A stretch of DNA of 54,557 bases, from sequence record PP180004. One strand, 5' to 3'. The DNA comes from Escherichia phage mEp044. A program made the position numbers and the translations under genes. Below the pieces are notes generated by a model, which saw nothing but the letters and a program-made list of their open reading frames with translations, ran no database searches and had not been told where the DNA came from. This document shows positions 14,982-18,893 of the stretch, piece by piece. Every line of letters begins with the position of its first letter. Within the stretch, counting starts at the first letter, position 1.

Positions 14982-15174
14982 ACAGTATAAAGAATGGAAG
15001 ATTCCAGAGGAAGCAAAAAAGGCAGCGCCCGGAAGGTTTTCTGGCGTTTATTTTTATATGGATGGTAAATGGTATTTCGGCAGCAGGCCGGATCACTATT
15101 ATCAAGAATTATGCAAATCTCACACATGGGACATTAAGGAGCGCGTGCAAGGCGGTGTAATAGACGAGGTTTAA
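14971..15174 (+). CDS. hypothetical protein
   Basis: 67-aa ORF. Confidence 0.35.
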   Translation: MKFKQYKEWKIPEEAKKAAPGRFSGVYFYMDGKWYFGSRPDHYYQELCKSHTWDIKERVQGGVIDEV

Positions 15175-15175
15175 A

Positions 15176-15412
15176 ATGGTTAAGAGCTTTTTTAACTGGT
15201 TGGGGGCGTGGCTTTTGGCTACGCTTTTTGTTTTCTTGGCGGCCCTGACTGTTATCGGTATTATCATGCTGGTGGCTATGTTTATTACGTGGTCGCTGCC
15301 TGAATTTAACGACATTGGGAATATTCTTTTTGCAGCCCGCGCTTTATTGGCTGTTAGCGCATTCATTGGTTTTTGCTGGACTGTGGCGCCTGATTGGGGT
15401 GATGAATGGTGA
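15176..15412 (+). CDS. small membrane protein (two predicted TM helices)
   Basis: 78 aa, hydrophobic. Confidence 0.4.
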   Translation: MVKSFFNWLGAWLLATLFVFLAALTVIGIIMLVAMFITWSLPEFNDIGNILFAARALLAVSAFIGFCWTVAPDWGDEW

Positions 15413-15650
15413 TCCTATGGCTTTGTTCAATATGTCAGAACTGCAATTTAATGCCGTAAAAGCCGCCGCCCGCGCTGCACTTTCTGCTTGCAAAGCGGAG
15501 GTAGAGAAAAACGGCTACAGCGATAAAGCTACACGGCTGATATTAGAAAAGCATTATCGCAAGGTCGCCCCACTAATCAGTATTGAGCGTTTTGTATGGT
15601 TGGTGGGGTATCTCAATAACCGATGGGGGACTGACCAGGATTATTTTTAG
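15315..15650 (+). CDS. hypothetical protein (start uncertain)
   Basis: 111-aa ORF overlapping the previous gene. Confidence 0.3.
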   Translation: MGIFFLQPALYWLLAHSLVFAGLWRLIGVMNGDPMALFNMSELQFNAVKAAARAALSACKAEVEKNGYSDKATRLILEKHYRKVAPLISIERFVWLVGYLNNRWGTDQDYF

Positions 15651-15653
15651 TGT

Positions 15654-15663
15654 GGGGGGGGGG
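15654..15663. repeat. G10 homopolymer forming the Shine-Dalgarno region of the Dam-like gene
   Basis: ten consecutive G between the upstream stop (15650) and ATG 15669. Confidence 0.8.
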
Positions 15664-15668
15664 TAATA

Positions 15669-16208
15669 ATGAAAAATGATTTCGGAGGCAGCAACACGCC
15701 GAAGGAAATAAAAGACCTGTGGCAGACGCCTAAACCAGTTTTCAGGGGAATGGACCGCGAGTTTGAATTTGTCGCTGACGTTGCGGCAAACAAGGCAAAC
15801 GCGCTAGTTCCGCGATATATAACCGAAGAAATGGACACGTTGCATTATCCGTGGGGAGCGGTGGCAATGCCTGGTGAGTATGTCTGGATGAATCCGCCAT
15901 ATTCGAATCCCGGGCCATTCGTTGATAAGGCGGCGCTAGAACATCATCGAAATCACATAGGTTGCGTAATGTTATTGCCCGCTGACGTTTCTGTTAGCTG
16001 GTTTATGAACGGCATTGAGACGGCAAACGAATGCCGATTAATCACGCGCGGTCGGCTGGCGTTTATCAATGCTGCGACAGGGAAACCAGTGAGCGGAAAC
16101 AATAAAGGGAGCTTGTTTTTGATCTGGCATCCACGATGCAGACATGAATGTATTTTTACACACATAACACGTAAAGAGCTATACGCAAGAGGTGCAGATA
16201 ATGACTAG
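15669..16208 (+). CDS. dam: phage-type DNA N6-adenine methyltransferase (Dam family)
   Basis: 179 aa; NPPYS catalytic motif and WQTP N-terminal motif. Confidence 0.8.
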   Translation: MKNDFGGSNTPKEIKDLWQTPKPVFRGMDREFEFVADVAANKANALVPRYITEEMDTLHYPWGAVAMPGEYVWMNPPYSNPGPFVDKAALEHHRNHIGCVMLLPADVSVSWFMNGIETANECRLITRGRLAFINAATGKPVSGNNKGSLFLIWHPRCRHECIFTHITRKELYARGADND

Positions 16209-16698
16209 TGCGGCAGATTTACTACGAATCGCAGCGGAAACAATTGAGCAAAGAGGTAAACAAAACGGATACGACAGAAAAGAGGAAAAATCGGCGCCAA
16301 AAATAGCCACTATATACAACGCTAAGAAGGGGGCAAATTTAACACCACTTGATGTATGGGATCTGTTGATTTGTCTCAAGGAGGCGCGATTAGAGGCCAT
16401 TTTAGTTAATGGAAGCGATCCGACAGACACACTGATAGATTTAATTAGCTACAGCGCACTGAAAGCGGAGCAAGTATTAACGGAGCGTGAGAAAGAGCAA
16501 AAGGAAAAACAGGCCGCTTTTGATCTCCCTATTGGCGGATTGGTAAAAGGTGAGGCGATAACCAGTTGTAAGGGATTGCCACCTTCTATGCTTGCCCCTC
16601 AATGTGGCTGCATTCCAACTAGTGTTGGCGTGAAGTTTAATAGGGATAATGCTATTCGTGACAAGAGGTATGACCCAAATGAAAAAGGTGGCAATTGA
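16201..16698 (+). CDS. hypothetical protein
   Basis: ORF 16192-16698, start taken at ATG 16201. Confidence 0.45.
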   Translation: MTSAADLLRIAAETIEQRGKQNGYDRKEEKSAPKIATIYNAKKGANLTPLDVWDLLICLKEARLEAILVNGSDPTDTLIDLISYSALKAEQVLTEREKEQKEKQAAFDLPIGGLVKGEAITSCKGLPPSMLAPQCGCIPTSVGVKFNRDNAIRDKRYDPNEKGGN

Positions 16699-17182
16699 CA
16701 GGTTATTGGCCTGCGTTTATGTCGCCGTTTTCGTGATCATCAACCTTATTGTTAACCATTGCGGCCCGTGGGTAATTCCGATCACCACGGTAGCCGCTGT
16801 GTGTGTCAATATGATGATCCGTGACTTCCTGTTGTATGACGGCGGCCTGAAATGGTCTGCTACAACATGCGCCGCCGCTGGCGCAATTACTGTGCTGATA
16901 AATTACGACGCCGGAATGGTGGCGATAGCGTCATTCGTTGCGGTTGTTTCCGGTGCGCTTATTTCTGGCGGCGTTTACCGGGTTTTACCTGGTGATTTCG
17001 ATTCTAAGCGCTGGCCTGCAAATATAGCGTCCGCCATTGGCGATGCGTTAATTTTCCCGACGCTATCGTTTATGGCATTTATGCCTGAAATATCAGCTAT
17101 GCAATTTATCTCAAAAATGGCAGCGGTAACGGTGATCACTATCATCATGCGCCGATATTTCACGTTTGAGGGCAGAAAATGA
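16679..17182 (+). CDS. multi-pass integral membrane protein; weak resemblance to VUT/YhhQ-type transporters
   Basis: ORF 16649-17182 trimmed to ATG 16679 preceded by AGAGGT; about 5 hydrophobic helices. Confidence 0.45.
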   Translation: MKKVAIDRLLACVYVAVFVIINLIVNHCGPWVIPITTVAAVCVNMMIRDFLLYDGGLKWSATTCAAAGAITVLINYDAGMVAIASFVAVVSGALISGGVYRVLPGDFDSKRWPANIASAIGDALIFPTLSFMAFMPEISAMQFISKMAAVTVITIIMRRYFTFEGRK

Positions 17183-17937
17183 GCAAGGCTAAACACTGGT
17201 TAAATAACTGGCTAAGAAGTTGGGTTGTATGGTCGCTGTACGACGGCAGCGGGTACGCCGTTAAAGATTGGGCGGAAGCAGGATATAAATGCTATTGCTT
17301 CAACTATGACGGCGCAAATCACGGCGATTATGAAGGCGTTAAAATAATTCATCCAAATATTGAATATGTCAACGTCTGGATTGATAGCCATTTCCTGGTA
17401 ATGTTCTCCCCTGAATTGTCTGTATATCCAGATCCTGACATTATCTTGGGTTTTCCGCCATGCGACGATCTCGCTGTGTCTGGCGCTCGCTGGTTCGCTG
17501 ACAAGCGAAAAGAAGATCCTGACTTCCAGGTGAAGGCGGCGAATAGCGCCAAACTGGTAGAAAAACTGGCGAATATGCACAACGTGCCGTGGATGGTGGA
17601 AAATCCTGTTGGCGCACTGTCAACTCTATGGCGTAAACCTGATTTTATATTCAACCCGTGCGCTTACGGTGGCTACCTGCCGGAAGATGACAAACATCCT
17701 GCTTTCCCGGATGTTTATCCGCCGCGCGACGCGTACACGAAAAAAACTTGCATATGGTGCGGCAACGGATTCAAACAGCCGCTTTTTAGACCTGTAGATC
17801 TTAACTCTGGTGATAACCCTGGATGGGCGAAAACAGGAGGCAGGACGAAACGAACAAAGATGATTCGCTCACTAACGCCGCGTGGCTTTGCCCGTGCTGT
17901 ATTCCTGGCTAACCATAACAGCGCTTTACCGGACTGA
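17179..17937 (+). CDS. short C5-cytosine methyltransferase-like protein
   Basis: 252 aa; motif I-like LYDGSGY..AGY, motif IV-like GFPPCDD..SG, motif VI-like ENPVG; no obvious target-recognition domain. Confidence 0.55.
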   Translation: MSKAKHWLNNWLRSWVVWSLYDGSGYAVKDWAEAGYKCYCFNYDGANHGDYEGVKIIHPNIEYVNVWIDSHFLVMFSPELSVYPDPDIILGFPPCDDLAVSGARWFADKRKEDPDFQVKAANSAKLVEKLANMHNVPWMVENPVGALSTLWRKPDFIFNPCAYGGYLPEDDKHPAFPDVYPPRDAYTKKTCIWCGNGFKQPLFRPVDLNSGDNPGWAKTGGRTKRTKMIRSLTPRGFARAVFLANHNSALPD

Positions 17938-18096
17938 AATTTACAAAATGGCGTCATTGCGTGATGCTGATCACATAATGGCGCTTTTCACCTTGTTCTG
18001 ACGTATCCATTTTGTATACTTCAAACAAGCAAAATGCTCTTTAAAAATCCGGCAGCGCTGAAATGCGTAGAAATCACCTGAAAAGGAGAGAGCATT

Positions 18097-18273
18097 ATGC
18101 CTTTTGATAATTACCAATGGCATGACGACTATGAACGAGAAAGCGTCATGCGTGCAATGTGCAATGTATGCAGCACGAAGAAAGGAGATTGCAACGAGTG
18201 CAACGAATGTTTAGATCATTGGCTAAGGGCCGGACACGCCGAAAGGCTGAACGAAACAGAGAATCAAAAATAA
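18097..18273 (+). CDS. 58-aa Cys-rich small protein (NinF-like position)
   Basis: manual translation; strong AAAAGGAGAG ribosome-binding site. Confidence 0.45.
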   Translation: MPFDNYQWHDDYERESVMRAMCNVCSTKKGDCNECNECLDHWLRAGHAERLNETENQK

Positions 18274-18287
18274 TCGGGGTGGTTTTT

Positions 18288-18893
18288 ATGCAGAACCCTA
18301 AAAAACCCATACGACGCCGTTGCAAGTGCTGCGGCGTTTTTTTTGAGCCTAAATATCACAATCAAACGTGGTGCAGTGATGAATGTCTGGAAGAACTGAA
18401 GTTTGACCAGCTATGCCGCGACCGTGAAAAGGCTATGAAGGCTATGGAGCGTAAGAAACGACGCGACAGCCAGCGGGAAGAGCGCAACCGGAAGCGGAAG
18501 CAGTTGCACCCGCGAAGCTACTGGATACACCAGGCGCAAACCGTATTTAACGCATACATACGCGAACGAGACGCAGGACAACCGTGTATATCTTGCGGTA
18601 CTTACTATTACGAGCAATGCGGAGCAGACGCGGGCCATTATAGATCTGTGGCGGCGGCTGGGCATCTTCGATTCAACGAAGATAACGTGCATTTACAATG
18701 CAGACATTGCAACCAGATGTTAGACGGCAATATTGAGGCTTATCGACCTGCACTGATTCGAAAAATTGGCCTGGCAAGGGTGGAGGCGCTTGAGAACAAT
18801 AACGAAGTTCACAAATGGACTATCGAAGAATGCAAGGAGATCGCAAAAGTTTATCAGGCTAAGTTAAACGCCTTAAGGAGAAAGGCAGCATGA
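18288..18893 (+). CDS. ninG: NinG/Rap-family protein
   Basis: ORF 18159-18893 with likely start at 18288; Cys/His-rich HNH-like motifs. Confidence 0.7.
   Translation: MQNPKKPIRRRCKCCGVFFEPKYHNQTWCSDECLEELKFDQLCRDREKAMKAMERKKRRDSQREERNRKRKQLHPRSYWIHQAQTVFNAYIRERDAGQPCISCGTYYYEQCGADAGHYRSVAAAGHLRFNEDNVHLQCRHCNQMLDGNIEAYRPALIRKIGLARVEALENNNEVHKWTIEECKEIAKVYQAKLNALRRKAA

Follow-up and report, generated by a model that had tools for sequence, protein, structure and literature searches.

We analyzed a 54,557-nt stretch of Escherichia phage mEp044 DNA (PP180004; the window in the following), which is essentially the whole genome of a temperate coliphage of the mEp021 group. Positions 15669–17937 are filled by four overlapping open reading frames (ORFs), all on the plus strand, with overlaps of 8, 20, and 4 nt between successive genes. 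An initial annotation, made from the sequence alone, had described four genes here as a Dam-like methyltransferase, a protein of about 166 aa, a membrane protein, and a short C5-methyltransferase-like protein, and all four lie where it had placed them. The block and the region closing it comprise the following features:

15669..16208, + strand: Dam, phage-type N6-adenine DNA methyltransferase (179 aa; PF05869/TIGR01712)
16201..16698, + strand: DUF6378 protein (165 aa; PF19905, phrog_9871/474)
16679..17182, + strand: short, divergent membrane protein of the VUT/YhhQ family (167 aa; phrog_4899, profile comparison)
17179..17937, + strand: predicted compact Dcm-like DNA C5-cytosine methyltransferase (252 aa; phrog_757)
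17938..18096, + strand: intergenic region closing the block, with a terminator and nutR2, both transferred by homology to mEp021 only

The block shares 87–92% nucleotide identity with its counterparts in six cultured phages and was found in 35 of 5426 complete E. coli genomes. In the mEp021 record, a predicted terminator (TERM_4) directly follows gp33, 14–47 nt past the stop codon, and its equivalent in the window lies at roughly 17951–17984. nutR2 has been placed just 3′ of the C5-methyltransferase gene in mEp021 (PMC11893012). A consensus terminator scan of positions 15000–18300 missed the terminator known from the mEp021 annotation, and a consensus promoter scan of the same interval performed no better than on shuffled sequence. 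The block lies upstream of nutR2, NinG, RusA, and Q and would belong to the delayed-early rightward operon of a mEp021-type temperate coliphage, at its distal end.

The product of the first gene is a full-length match to the phage-type N6-adenine methyltransferase families PF05869 (E 2.2e-51; 174 bits, cut-off 28.1; profile positions 1–166 of 169) and TIGR01712 (141 bits; cut-off 97.05), and also matches phrog_111 and the PADLOC orphan methyltransferase model. The catalytic (D/N)PP(Y/F) motif is present as NPPY at residues 75–78, which together with the profile matches bears out the earlier Dam-family assignment. Dam evolves under purifying selection (dN/dS 0.07–0.08 against mEp021 and MagusPhagus), and GATC is not avoided in the phage genome (253 observed vs 171 ± 12 expected).

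The second gene corresponds to the protein of about 166 aa that had been noted between Dam and the membrane gene. It encodes 165 aa from the ATG at 16201, the start used by all database homologues, or 168 aa from an alternative GTG at 16192. The product matches PF19905 (31.4 bits, cut-off 27.1, residues 10–93), which is carried by all 120 homologues listed for it, as well as phrog_9871/474. Across 19 homologues, the helical N-terminal domain (approximately residues 1–95) is nearly invariant, and the C-terminal tail is hypervariable with insertions and deletions; dN/dS is 0.23. An AF2 model contained four helices at a pLDDT of 49 and was unusable, a profile-based sequence search of the PDB returned no match, and a literature search found nothing on DUF6378 function. 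We regard the product as a small, probably helical protein with a fast-evolving tail. Its conserved helices recall the DUF1599/MazG-like helical bundles, a type linked to nucleotide modification, and this likeness serves as a lead only.

For the third gene, the ATG at 16679, with an AAGAGG 10 nt before it, is the start that agrees with the homologues; alternative upstream ATGs occur at 16649 and 16670. Its hydropathy profile contains six hydrophobic segments, in agreement with the multi-pass topology proposed earlier, and the mEp021 record lists six transmembrane segments by both TMHMM and Phobius. No match at E ≤ 0.1 was obtained in direct Pfam and NCBIfam scans, nor any in the PDB by sequence search, while phrog_4899 matched with E 2e-46. 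An exhaustive phmmer search retrieved 143 cluster representatives, with E-values down to 1e-21 for non-trivial relatives, and 58 of the 61 relatives scanned matched PF02592 (Vut_1; best E 1.9e-16). The window protein itself stays below the PF02592 gathering score (12.3 bits, E 0.22, vs 27.2) but spans profile positions 6–149 of 152, and a profile comparison with E. coli YhhQ using hhalign gave a probability of 93.8% (E 1.7e-7 over 120 columns). We therefore read the membrane protein, on the strength of these comparisons, as a probable short and divergent member of the VUT/YhhQ queuosine-precursor transporter family. Profile searches had been suggested as a check on this protein and on the 252-aa protein, and they led to the VUT/YhhQ family and phrog_757, respectively.

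This assignment points to 7-deazaguanine (queuosine-precursor) biology rather than methylation. In the earlier view, protection against restriction alone did not account for the membrane protein; the family assignment now largely explains it. A SAM or methionine importer, a candidate raised by the location of the gene between two SAM enzymes, was dropped in favor of the VUT assignment and the DpdA linkage to deazaguanine bases described below.

In 80 metagenomic viral loci containing VUT, phrog_887 (‘queuine tRNA-ribosyltransferase’, DpdA-like) occurred near VUT in 76 by HMM and in 72 by clustering, nearly always directly adjacent and on the same strand. A DpdA-like gene also directly adjoins VUT in the phages Opt-719, PEAT2, LHE71, Phc, RCIP0319, Flyfo Tbat1_6, and ECO111 5-P, and the same arrangement was seen in every cultured phage checked from outside the mEp021 group. 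Homologues of YhhQ are known from phages, and their distribution was reported as independent of phage group (PMC6884629); set against this literature, the VUT–DpdA pairing appears near-universal in phages. No DpdA-like ORF was detected in the window by an HMM of the DpdA neighbors run on all six frames with filters off (best E 3.9), and Pfam and PHROG scans revealed no DpdA/TGT-like gene among the remaining unassigned window ORFs. Likewise, the annotation of the related phage MagusPhagus lists no DpdA. Scans of the ORFs (small ORFs not all individually) turned up no genes for preQ0 synthesis, nor do the annotations of relatives list any.

The window VUT belongs to a divergent DpdA-less clade that consists of the mEp021 group, its relative L004 (54% identical), and the P0134 group (46% identical). 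We propose that this lineage would have arisen from phage VUTs feeding a neighboring DpdA DNA transglycosylase and that DpdA was probably lost here, with the C5 gene now in its place beside VUT. VUT is nevertheless under strong purifying selection. The transporter would import 7-deazaguanine bases, presumably preQ0/preQ1-like, and the most likely beneficiary during infection would be the Tgt/queuosine-tRNA pathway of the host. Its substrate may have changed, given its score below the Pfam threshold and its place in a divergent DpdA-less clade. Because preQ1 synthesis and a YhhQ are native to E. coli, what the phage would gain from additional import is not obvious.

Among the alternatives, the one that fares best, though we consider it improbable, is that VUT, now useless and retained by operon position alone, survives as the decaying remnant of a former DpdA–VUT deazaguanine module. 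The absence here of a DpdA gene that lies nearby, usually adjacent, for nearly all other phage VUTs fits such a relic, as do the deletions that cut VUT in the natural variants P0130, P0127, and P0132 and the observation that deleting yhhQ from phage CAjan left DNA modification unaffected (PMC7544227). A relic would, however, hardly be the most constrained gene of the four (dN/dS 0.018–0.044 at dS 0.24–0.37). The protein is intact and 98–100% identical in the six cultured phages, against 87–92% for the DNA of the block, all family-invariant residues (N22, G29, D49, D122, F131, and K146) are retained, and the DpdA-less arrangement persists down to the 54% protein identity of L004.

It is about equally doubtful that the DpdA-less clade has taken on a new role since its split from DpdA, either import of a 7-deazaguanine or another base that would reprogram the queuosine status of host tRNA in infected cells, or supply of an as yet unrecognized DNA modification carried out with the neighboring enzymes. 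If this were true, the extreme constraint on VUT without its usual partner would mark a new phage use of queuosine-precursor transport. DpdA-bearing and DpdA-less phages form a clean contrast set for studying what purpose phage-encoded precursor import serves.

The fourth gene encodes the 252-aa protein, which matches phrog_757 over residues 3–248 (E 9.7e-87). Direct scans gave no PF00145 or NCBIfam match at E ≤ 0.1, a precomputed PF00145 match is carried by only 2 of the 120 homologues listed, and a sequence search found no match in the PDB. The C5-methyltransferase motifs reported earlier are nevertheless all present: motif I as YDGSG at residues 21–25 (YDGSGY from residue 21), motif IV as GFPPCDD from residue 91 with the catalytic PC at P94-C95, and an ENV-type motif VI as ENPVG from residue 141 (E141-N142-P143). 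K188-K189 is conserved as well. Since G23, S24, P94, C95, E141, N142, and P143 are invariant in 32 homologues of 52–95% identity, the motifs are not due to chance; motif IV reads PCDD in the window protein and PCTD in most of the family. This family has more than 7765 homologues and occurs in 1518 phage genomes. The initial annotation had called the enzyme truncated and had seen no room for a normal target-recognition domain. The first part is not supported: by sequence, the protein is full-length, not a truncated oddity, and its compact family is very common in phages. As to the second, the stretch available for recognition comprises only about 32 residues. The short enzyme is thereby explained, orphan methylases of this kind being among the most common in phages.

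Structure prediction yielded a confident model with seven strands and the complete C5-methyltransferase fold, closest to DNMT3. The roughly 32 residues (194–225) between the strand at 190–195 and the C-terminal helices contain a conserved GG(K/R)(S/T)xxTK and would form a minimal loop of the DNMT3 kind instead of a full domain. DNMT3 enzymes are known for a minimal recognition domain.

A characterized relative is available in K42 Dcm, for which tonijn gp41 serves as a proxy (gene length 711 bp; C82, E128, K175, and K176 in the same numbering as K42 Dcm); the window protein is 61% identical to tonijn gp41 over 233 residues. K42 Dcm raises 5mC in msDNA as measured by LC-MS and triggers retron Ec86, and its activity depends on the residues equivalent to C95, E141, K188, and K189 of the window protein (bioRxiv 10.1101/2023.08.16.553469). 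The authors took CCWGG as the target of the compact family by assumption, from host Dcm, and did not map it. Specificity can change at 61% identity, which counts against a CCWGG assignment for the window enzyme. CCWGG sites are not avoided in the phage genome (117 observed vs 61 ± 8 expected). Enrichment of CCWGG and GATC was considered as evidence of methyl protection and set aside: it is compatible with protection, yet typical of E. coli DNA and therefore non-discriminating.

The block had been interpreted as a methylation module. In natural variants with in-frame deletions, Dam, DUF6378, and half of VUT are gone and the C5 gene is kept, and such C5-only variants occur on at least 11 contigs; the four genes are hence not an obligate unit, and the module label does not hold. 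The loss of VUT in several natural variants counts against our main explanation of the block.

A tighter coupling, with the four genes as one unit for a DNA modification beyond plain m6A or 5mC, would have the C5-like enzyme or DUF6378 install the VUT-imported precursor and so replace DpdA. We consider this very unlikely in view of the distribution of the two genes: the C5 family is found in ~1500 phage genomes, VUT homologues in only 20 phage records, and the two are directly paired only in six records of the mEp021 group. A C5-like gene lies near VUT in only 2 of the 80 metagenomic loci, in both of which DpdA is also present, and a VUT–C5 linkage beyond the mEp021-type lineage was rejected on this ground. 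The close C5 relative makes ordinary 5mC, C5 occurs without VUT in deletion variants, on many full-length contigs, and the gene order of L004 reflects whole-region synteny and is not independent evidence. Least probable of all is that the 252-aa protein is something other than a DNA 5mC methyltransferase here, such as an inactive DNA-binding derivative or an RNA or nucleotide methylase: the missing PF00145 and NCBIfam matches, the very short recognition region, and the PCDD variant of motif IV would suit it, but conservation extends to the catalytic cysteine, the ENV glutamate, the lysine pair, and the glycines of the SAM motif, dN/dS is 0.05–0.13, the best fold match is to DNA C5-methyltransferases, and the relative at 61% identity acts on DNA through exactly these residues.

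Anti-restriction is the standard reading of orphan phage methyltransferases. The two enzymes of the block support it in so far as they appear, from their sequences, to be orphan DNA methyltransferases of the Dam and C5 types without a restriction partner (PADLOC returned orphan-methyltransferase matches only); a protective role had also been proposed in the initial annotation. Dam and the Dcm-like C5 enzyme would methylate replicating phage DNA with SAM, most likely at GATC-type and CCWGG-type sites, and the methylation would shield progeny from methylation-blocked restriction enzymes whatever the dam/dcm status of the host. The same Dcm activity could expose the phage to methylation-sensing defenses, e.g., retron Ec86. 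For the close relative of this enzyme, activity against restriction comes with a cost, because it triggers retron Ec86, and we predict that the same retron may sense mEp021-type phages.

Overall, we think it likely that the block combines two protective methylases, a VUT importer without DpdA, and a DUF6378 protein as independent genes in one operon, four accessory genes that would be translationally coupled while acting independently of one another. This proposal builds on the gene structures, family assignments, fold, conservation of the residues that were mutated in the active C5 relative, VUT–DpdA linkage elsewhere, absence of DpdA here, and selection pattern, from which we infer the methylase target sequences, the VUT substrate, and the use of the import. 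The block changes no paradigm; it is mostly ordinary, and its one modest puzzle is the orphan VUT.

Compared with known systems, the window C5 enzyme shares only 15–17% identity with the catalytic domains of DNMT3A/DNMT3B, a likeness at the level of fold and superfamily only, and unlike them it has no regulatory domains or known partner. Its nearest characterized counterpart, the 236-aa K42/Warwickvirus Dcm (by the tonijn proxy), belongs to the same phrog_757 family at 61% identity and has in common with it the catalytic cysteine, the ENV glutamate, the Lys-Lys pair, and a DNMT3-like predicted fold. The window protein differs from K42 Dcm in a 13-residue N-terminal extension and in PCDD instead of PCTD. 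Its gene resides beside VUT in a phage of the temperate mEp021 type; K42 belongs to the Drexlerviridae and is lytic.

The window VUT falls by profile comparison into the same family as E. coli YhhQ and the phage YhhQ/VUT proteins of 7-deazaguanine clusters (e.g., CAjan and PEAT2; PMC6884629, PMC7544227). Like the latter, it is phage-encoded with six predicted membrane segments; it is ~55 residues shorter than YhhQ, falls below the Pfam threshold, and stands without the DpdA partner that accompanies nearly all other phage VUTs examined. The closest system is gp30–gp33 of mEp021 (MH706966; mEpimmI group, PMC11893012), in which all four genes recur in unchanged order and the nucleotide identity is 89.7%. 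These were annotated as a putative Dam, a hypothetical protein, a putative membrane protein (6 TM), and a putative DNA cytosine methyltransferase, with no VUT/YhhQ label for the membrane protein and no DUF6378 label for the hypothetical protein. The membrane protein, which mEp021 lists as a ‘putative membrane protein’ and related records as ‘hypothetical’, can now be re-annotated as a probable VUT/YhhQ family member.

Four open reading frames occupy positions 15669-17937 on the + strand, where the initial annotation had placed them, and carry the motifs it quoted: a Dam-like methyltransferase, a DUF6378 protein, a membrane protein and a 252-aa C5-cytosine methyltransferase-like protein (C5). 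The DUF6378 gene most likely starts at the ATG at 16201, which would yield 165 aa, as in nearly all of the homologues among the matches listed. For the membrane protein, the ATG at 16679, preceded by AAGAGG 10 nt upstream, is the most likely start and results in 167 aa, in agreement with its homologues. Consecutive genes overlap by 8, 20 and 4 nt, which argues for one translationally coupled unit.

Six cultured phages of the mEp021 (mEpimmI) group, all temperate coliphages, share 87-92% DNA identity with the 2.4-kb region, and of 5426 complete E. coli genomes, 35 contained a prophage with similar DNA. Since the 54.6-kb window spans integrase to tail fibres and mEp021 measures 54,655 bp, it represents essentially the whole phage. 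The four genes correspond to mEp021 gp30-gp33, whose existing annotations read putative Dam, hypothetical protein, putative membrane protein (6 TM) and putative DNA cytosine methyltransferase. In the mEp021 record the block is followed by a terminator, and the nutR2 site has also been placed after the four genes (PMC11893012); downstream come NinG, RusA and the late regulator Q. Two further ORFs were noted:

15417-15650, + strand: small ORF just upstream of Dam, abutting the block, syntenic with mEp021_29
1561-2223, - strand: 220-aa ORF adjoining the integrase

The first is the syntenic counterpart of ipe (inducer of pleiotropic effects), which has been given a name but is little understood. 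The second had no match in Pfam and PHROG scans and may be a lysogeny-associated cargo gene.

A profile search of the membrane protein, as proposed in the initial annotation, led to the VUT/YhhQ family by way of its relatives. Close relatives are few, and an exhaustive phmmer search against 1.8 billion representatives recovered 143 relatives in total. Pfam Vut_1 (PF02592, the YhhQ queuosine-precursor transporter family) was matched by 58 of the 61 relatives scanned, the window protein by itself reaching only 12.3 bits. A profile including the window protein aligned to E. coli YhhQ with a probability of 93.8%. With six hydrophobic segments and every family-invariant residue retained, the protein is a predicted divergent VUT-family member, open to re-annotation as a VUT transporter.

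We surveyed and clustered the gene neighbours of VUTs 31-37% identical to that of the window in 80 viral metagenome loci (IMG/VR, L009-L088). Clustering placed a DpdA-like gene near VUT on the same strand in 72 loci and the HMM in 76, nearly always directly adjacent. This ~245-aa neighbour matches phrog_887 ‘queuine tRNA-ribosyltransferase’, a DpdA-like DNA transglycosylase. DpdA also directly flanks VUT in all seven non-mEp021 cultured phages checked (Opt-719, PEAT2, LHE71, Phc, RCIP0319, Flyfo Tbat1_6 and ECO111 5-P; loci L089, L090 and L093-L097). The short VUT/YhhQ-like genes of these pairs encode ~160 aa, and the phrog_887 gene is often labelled just ‘hypothetical’, e.g. in LHE71, Phc and Opt-719, all Drexlerviridae. 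The pairing supports a role for phage VUTs as suppliers of 7-deazaguanine bases used in DNA modification, and adds precision to an earlier description of phage-encoded YhhQ homologues as uncorrelated with any phage group (PMC6884629).

Within the window, a filters-off HMM search for a DpdA-like gene in six frames gave a best match of only E 3.9, and Pfam and PHROG scans detected no DpdA among the otherwise unassigned ORFs. Its usual place beside VUT is occupied by the C5 gene, located directly 3' and overlapping the VUT stop codon. The same four-gene order (Dam-DUF6378-VUT-C5) occurs in a relative with a VUT only 54% identical, and a VUT of 46% identity resides in a different phage without DpdA, with an N6/N4 methylase nearby in two of three recovered loci. 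The three DpdA-less VUTs group together in a neighbour-joining tree, as one clade adjoining a DpdA-linked one.

That VUT persists as a neutral relic is contradicted by the selection data. Its dN/dS was 0.018 (dS 0.37) against mEp021 and 0.044 (dS 0.24) against MagusPhagus, while the same references gave 0.07-0.08 for Dam, 0.05-0.13 for C5 and a block maximum of 0.23 for DUF6378. VUT is thus the most constrained gene of the block and maintained, raising the question of why constraint is so tight in a DpdA-less lineage. VUT would most likely import preQ0/preQ1-type bases; with phage DpdA absent, we infer the host Tgt/queuosine-tRNA pathway as their likeliest consumer.

VUT is also dispensable. 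In the deletion variant P0130, found on at least 11 contigs of mostly full phage or prophage length, Dam residues 1-36 run in frame into the C-terminal half of VUT, with the junction at an ‘FVA’ microhomology common to both:

L098:3001-3348 and L099:774-1121: P0130 coding region

This deletion takes out DUF6378 entirely, along with most of Dam and half of VUT, and retains the C5 gene. Two other variants (P0127, P0132) are VUT-C5 fusions. Overall, the block looks like a hotspot of short-homology deletions. Since deletion variants keep C5, this methylase can do without VUT, and the four genes do not make up an obligate machine. The proposed ‘methylation module’ accordingly holds for its four genes and both methylases, not as an obligate unit. 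A coupled novel modification pathway is contradicted by these variants and by the family distributions; the observation itself holds, and each of its components belongs to a known kind.

Gene 1 matched Pfam PF05869 (E 2e-51), exceeded the cut-off of the NCBIfam equivalog TIGR01712 and encodes NPPY at residues 75-78; it is a predicted, ordinary phage-type N6-adenine methyltransferase with a presumed target site. Across the whole window, GATC (253 observed, 171±12 expected) and CCWGG (117 observed, 61±8 expected) are strongly over-represented relative to dinucleotide-preserving shuffles.

Gene 2 scored just over threshold for PF19905, and neither the PDB nor the literature held anything on DUF6378 function; its predicted structure was too poor for use. 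Residues 1 to ~95 are nearly invariant among relatives, while the last ~70 (16486-16698) are hypervariable and differ by indels between E. coli prophage relatives that are otherwise close; diversifying pressure or relaxed constraint could account for this pattern. The final 20 nt of the gene overlap the VUT gene start.

C5 had no match among Pfam and NCBIfam profiles and matched phrog_757 ‘DNA methyltransferase’ (E 1e-86). Nearly all of its >7765 homologues measure 225-260 aa, so its shortness, initially read as truncation, is the norm of a compact family of which it is a complete member. By tblastn, the family occurs in 1518 of ~50,700 phage records, among them Drexlerviridae, Klebsiella siphoviruses, rV5-like myoviruses and HK578-like phages. 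From an alignment of 32 homologues, AlphaFold produced a confident model (pLDDT 88, pTM 0.87, seven strands), with DNMT3A/3B catalytic domains as best Foldseek matches. Only ~32 residues separate the last core strand from the C-terminal helices, bearing out the suspected lack of room for a classical recognition domain; the analogy to DNMT3 shows that a minimal loop would be enough. Inactivity is contradicted by residue conservation: the SAM-motif glycines, Pro94-Cys95, Glu141-Asn142-Pro143 and the C-terminal IRSLTxR helix are invariant across the 32 homologues. In two viral contigs, DpdA-VUT pairs have nearby genes of a second, even shorter C5-methyltransferase-like family (~200 aa), distantly related to the window enzyme (E 1e-16 to the HMM of its family):

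L041:7060-7686 and L017:4226-4822: ~200-aa C5-like genes (ACEYSG...HPPCT...ENPVS...KTTCLW)

Dam and C5 would most likely methylate replicating phage DNA, shielding progeny from methylation-blocked restriction independently of host dam/dcm status, at the cost that C5 activity could be detected by methylation-triggered defences. C5 belongs to a compact, known and active family. In a retron Ec86 study (10.1101/2023.08.16.553469, preprint), phage K42 (Drexlerviridae), closely related to KarlJaspers (Bas06), escaped the retron upon loss of a 711-bp ‘Dcm’ gene. Expression of this Dcm, modelled by the authors on DNMT3A, increased 5mC in msDNA by LC-MS, and a C82A/E128A/K175A/K176A mutant was inactive. 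The authors took its CCWGG specificity over from host Dcm, with msDNA-site mutation as the only support, so the motif of the compact family, including the window enzyme, is likewise putative. Phage tonijn (Warwickvirus) carries a 711-bp gene with Cys82, Glu128, Lys175 and Lys176 at exactly the K42 Dcm positions; its product shares 61% identity with the window C5, where these residues correspond to Cys95, Glu141, Lys188 and Lys189.
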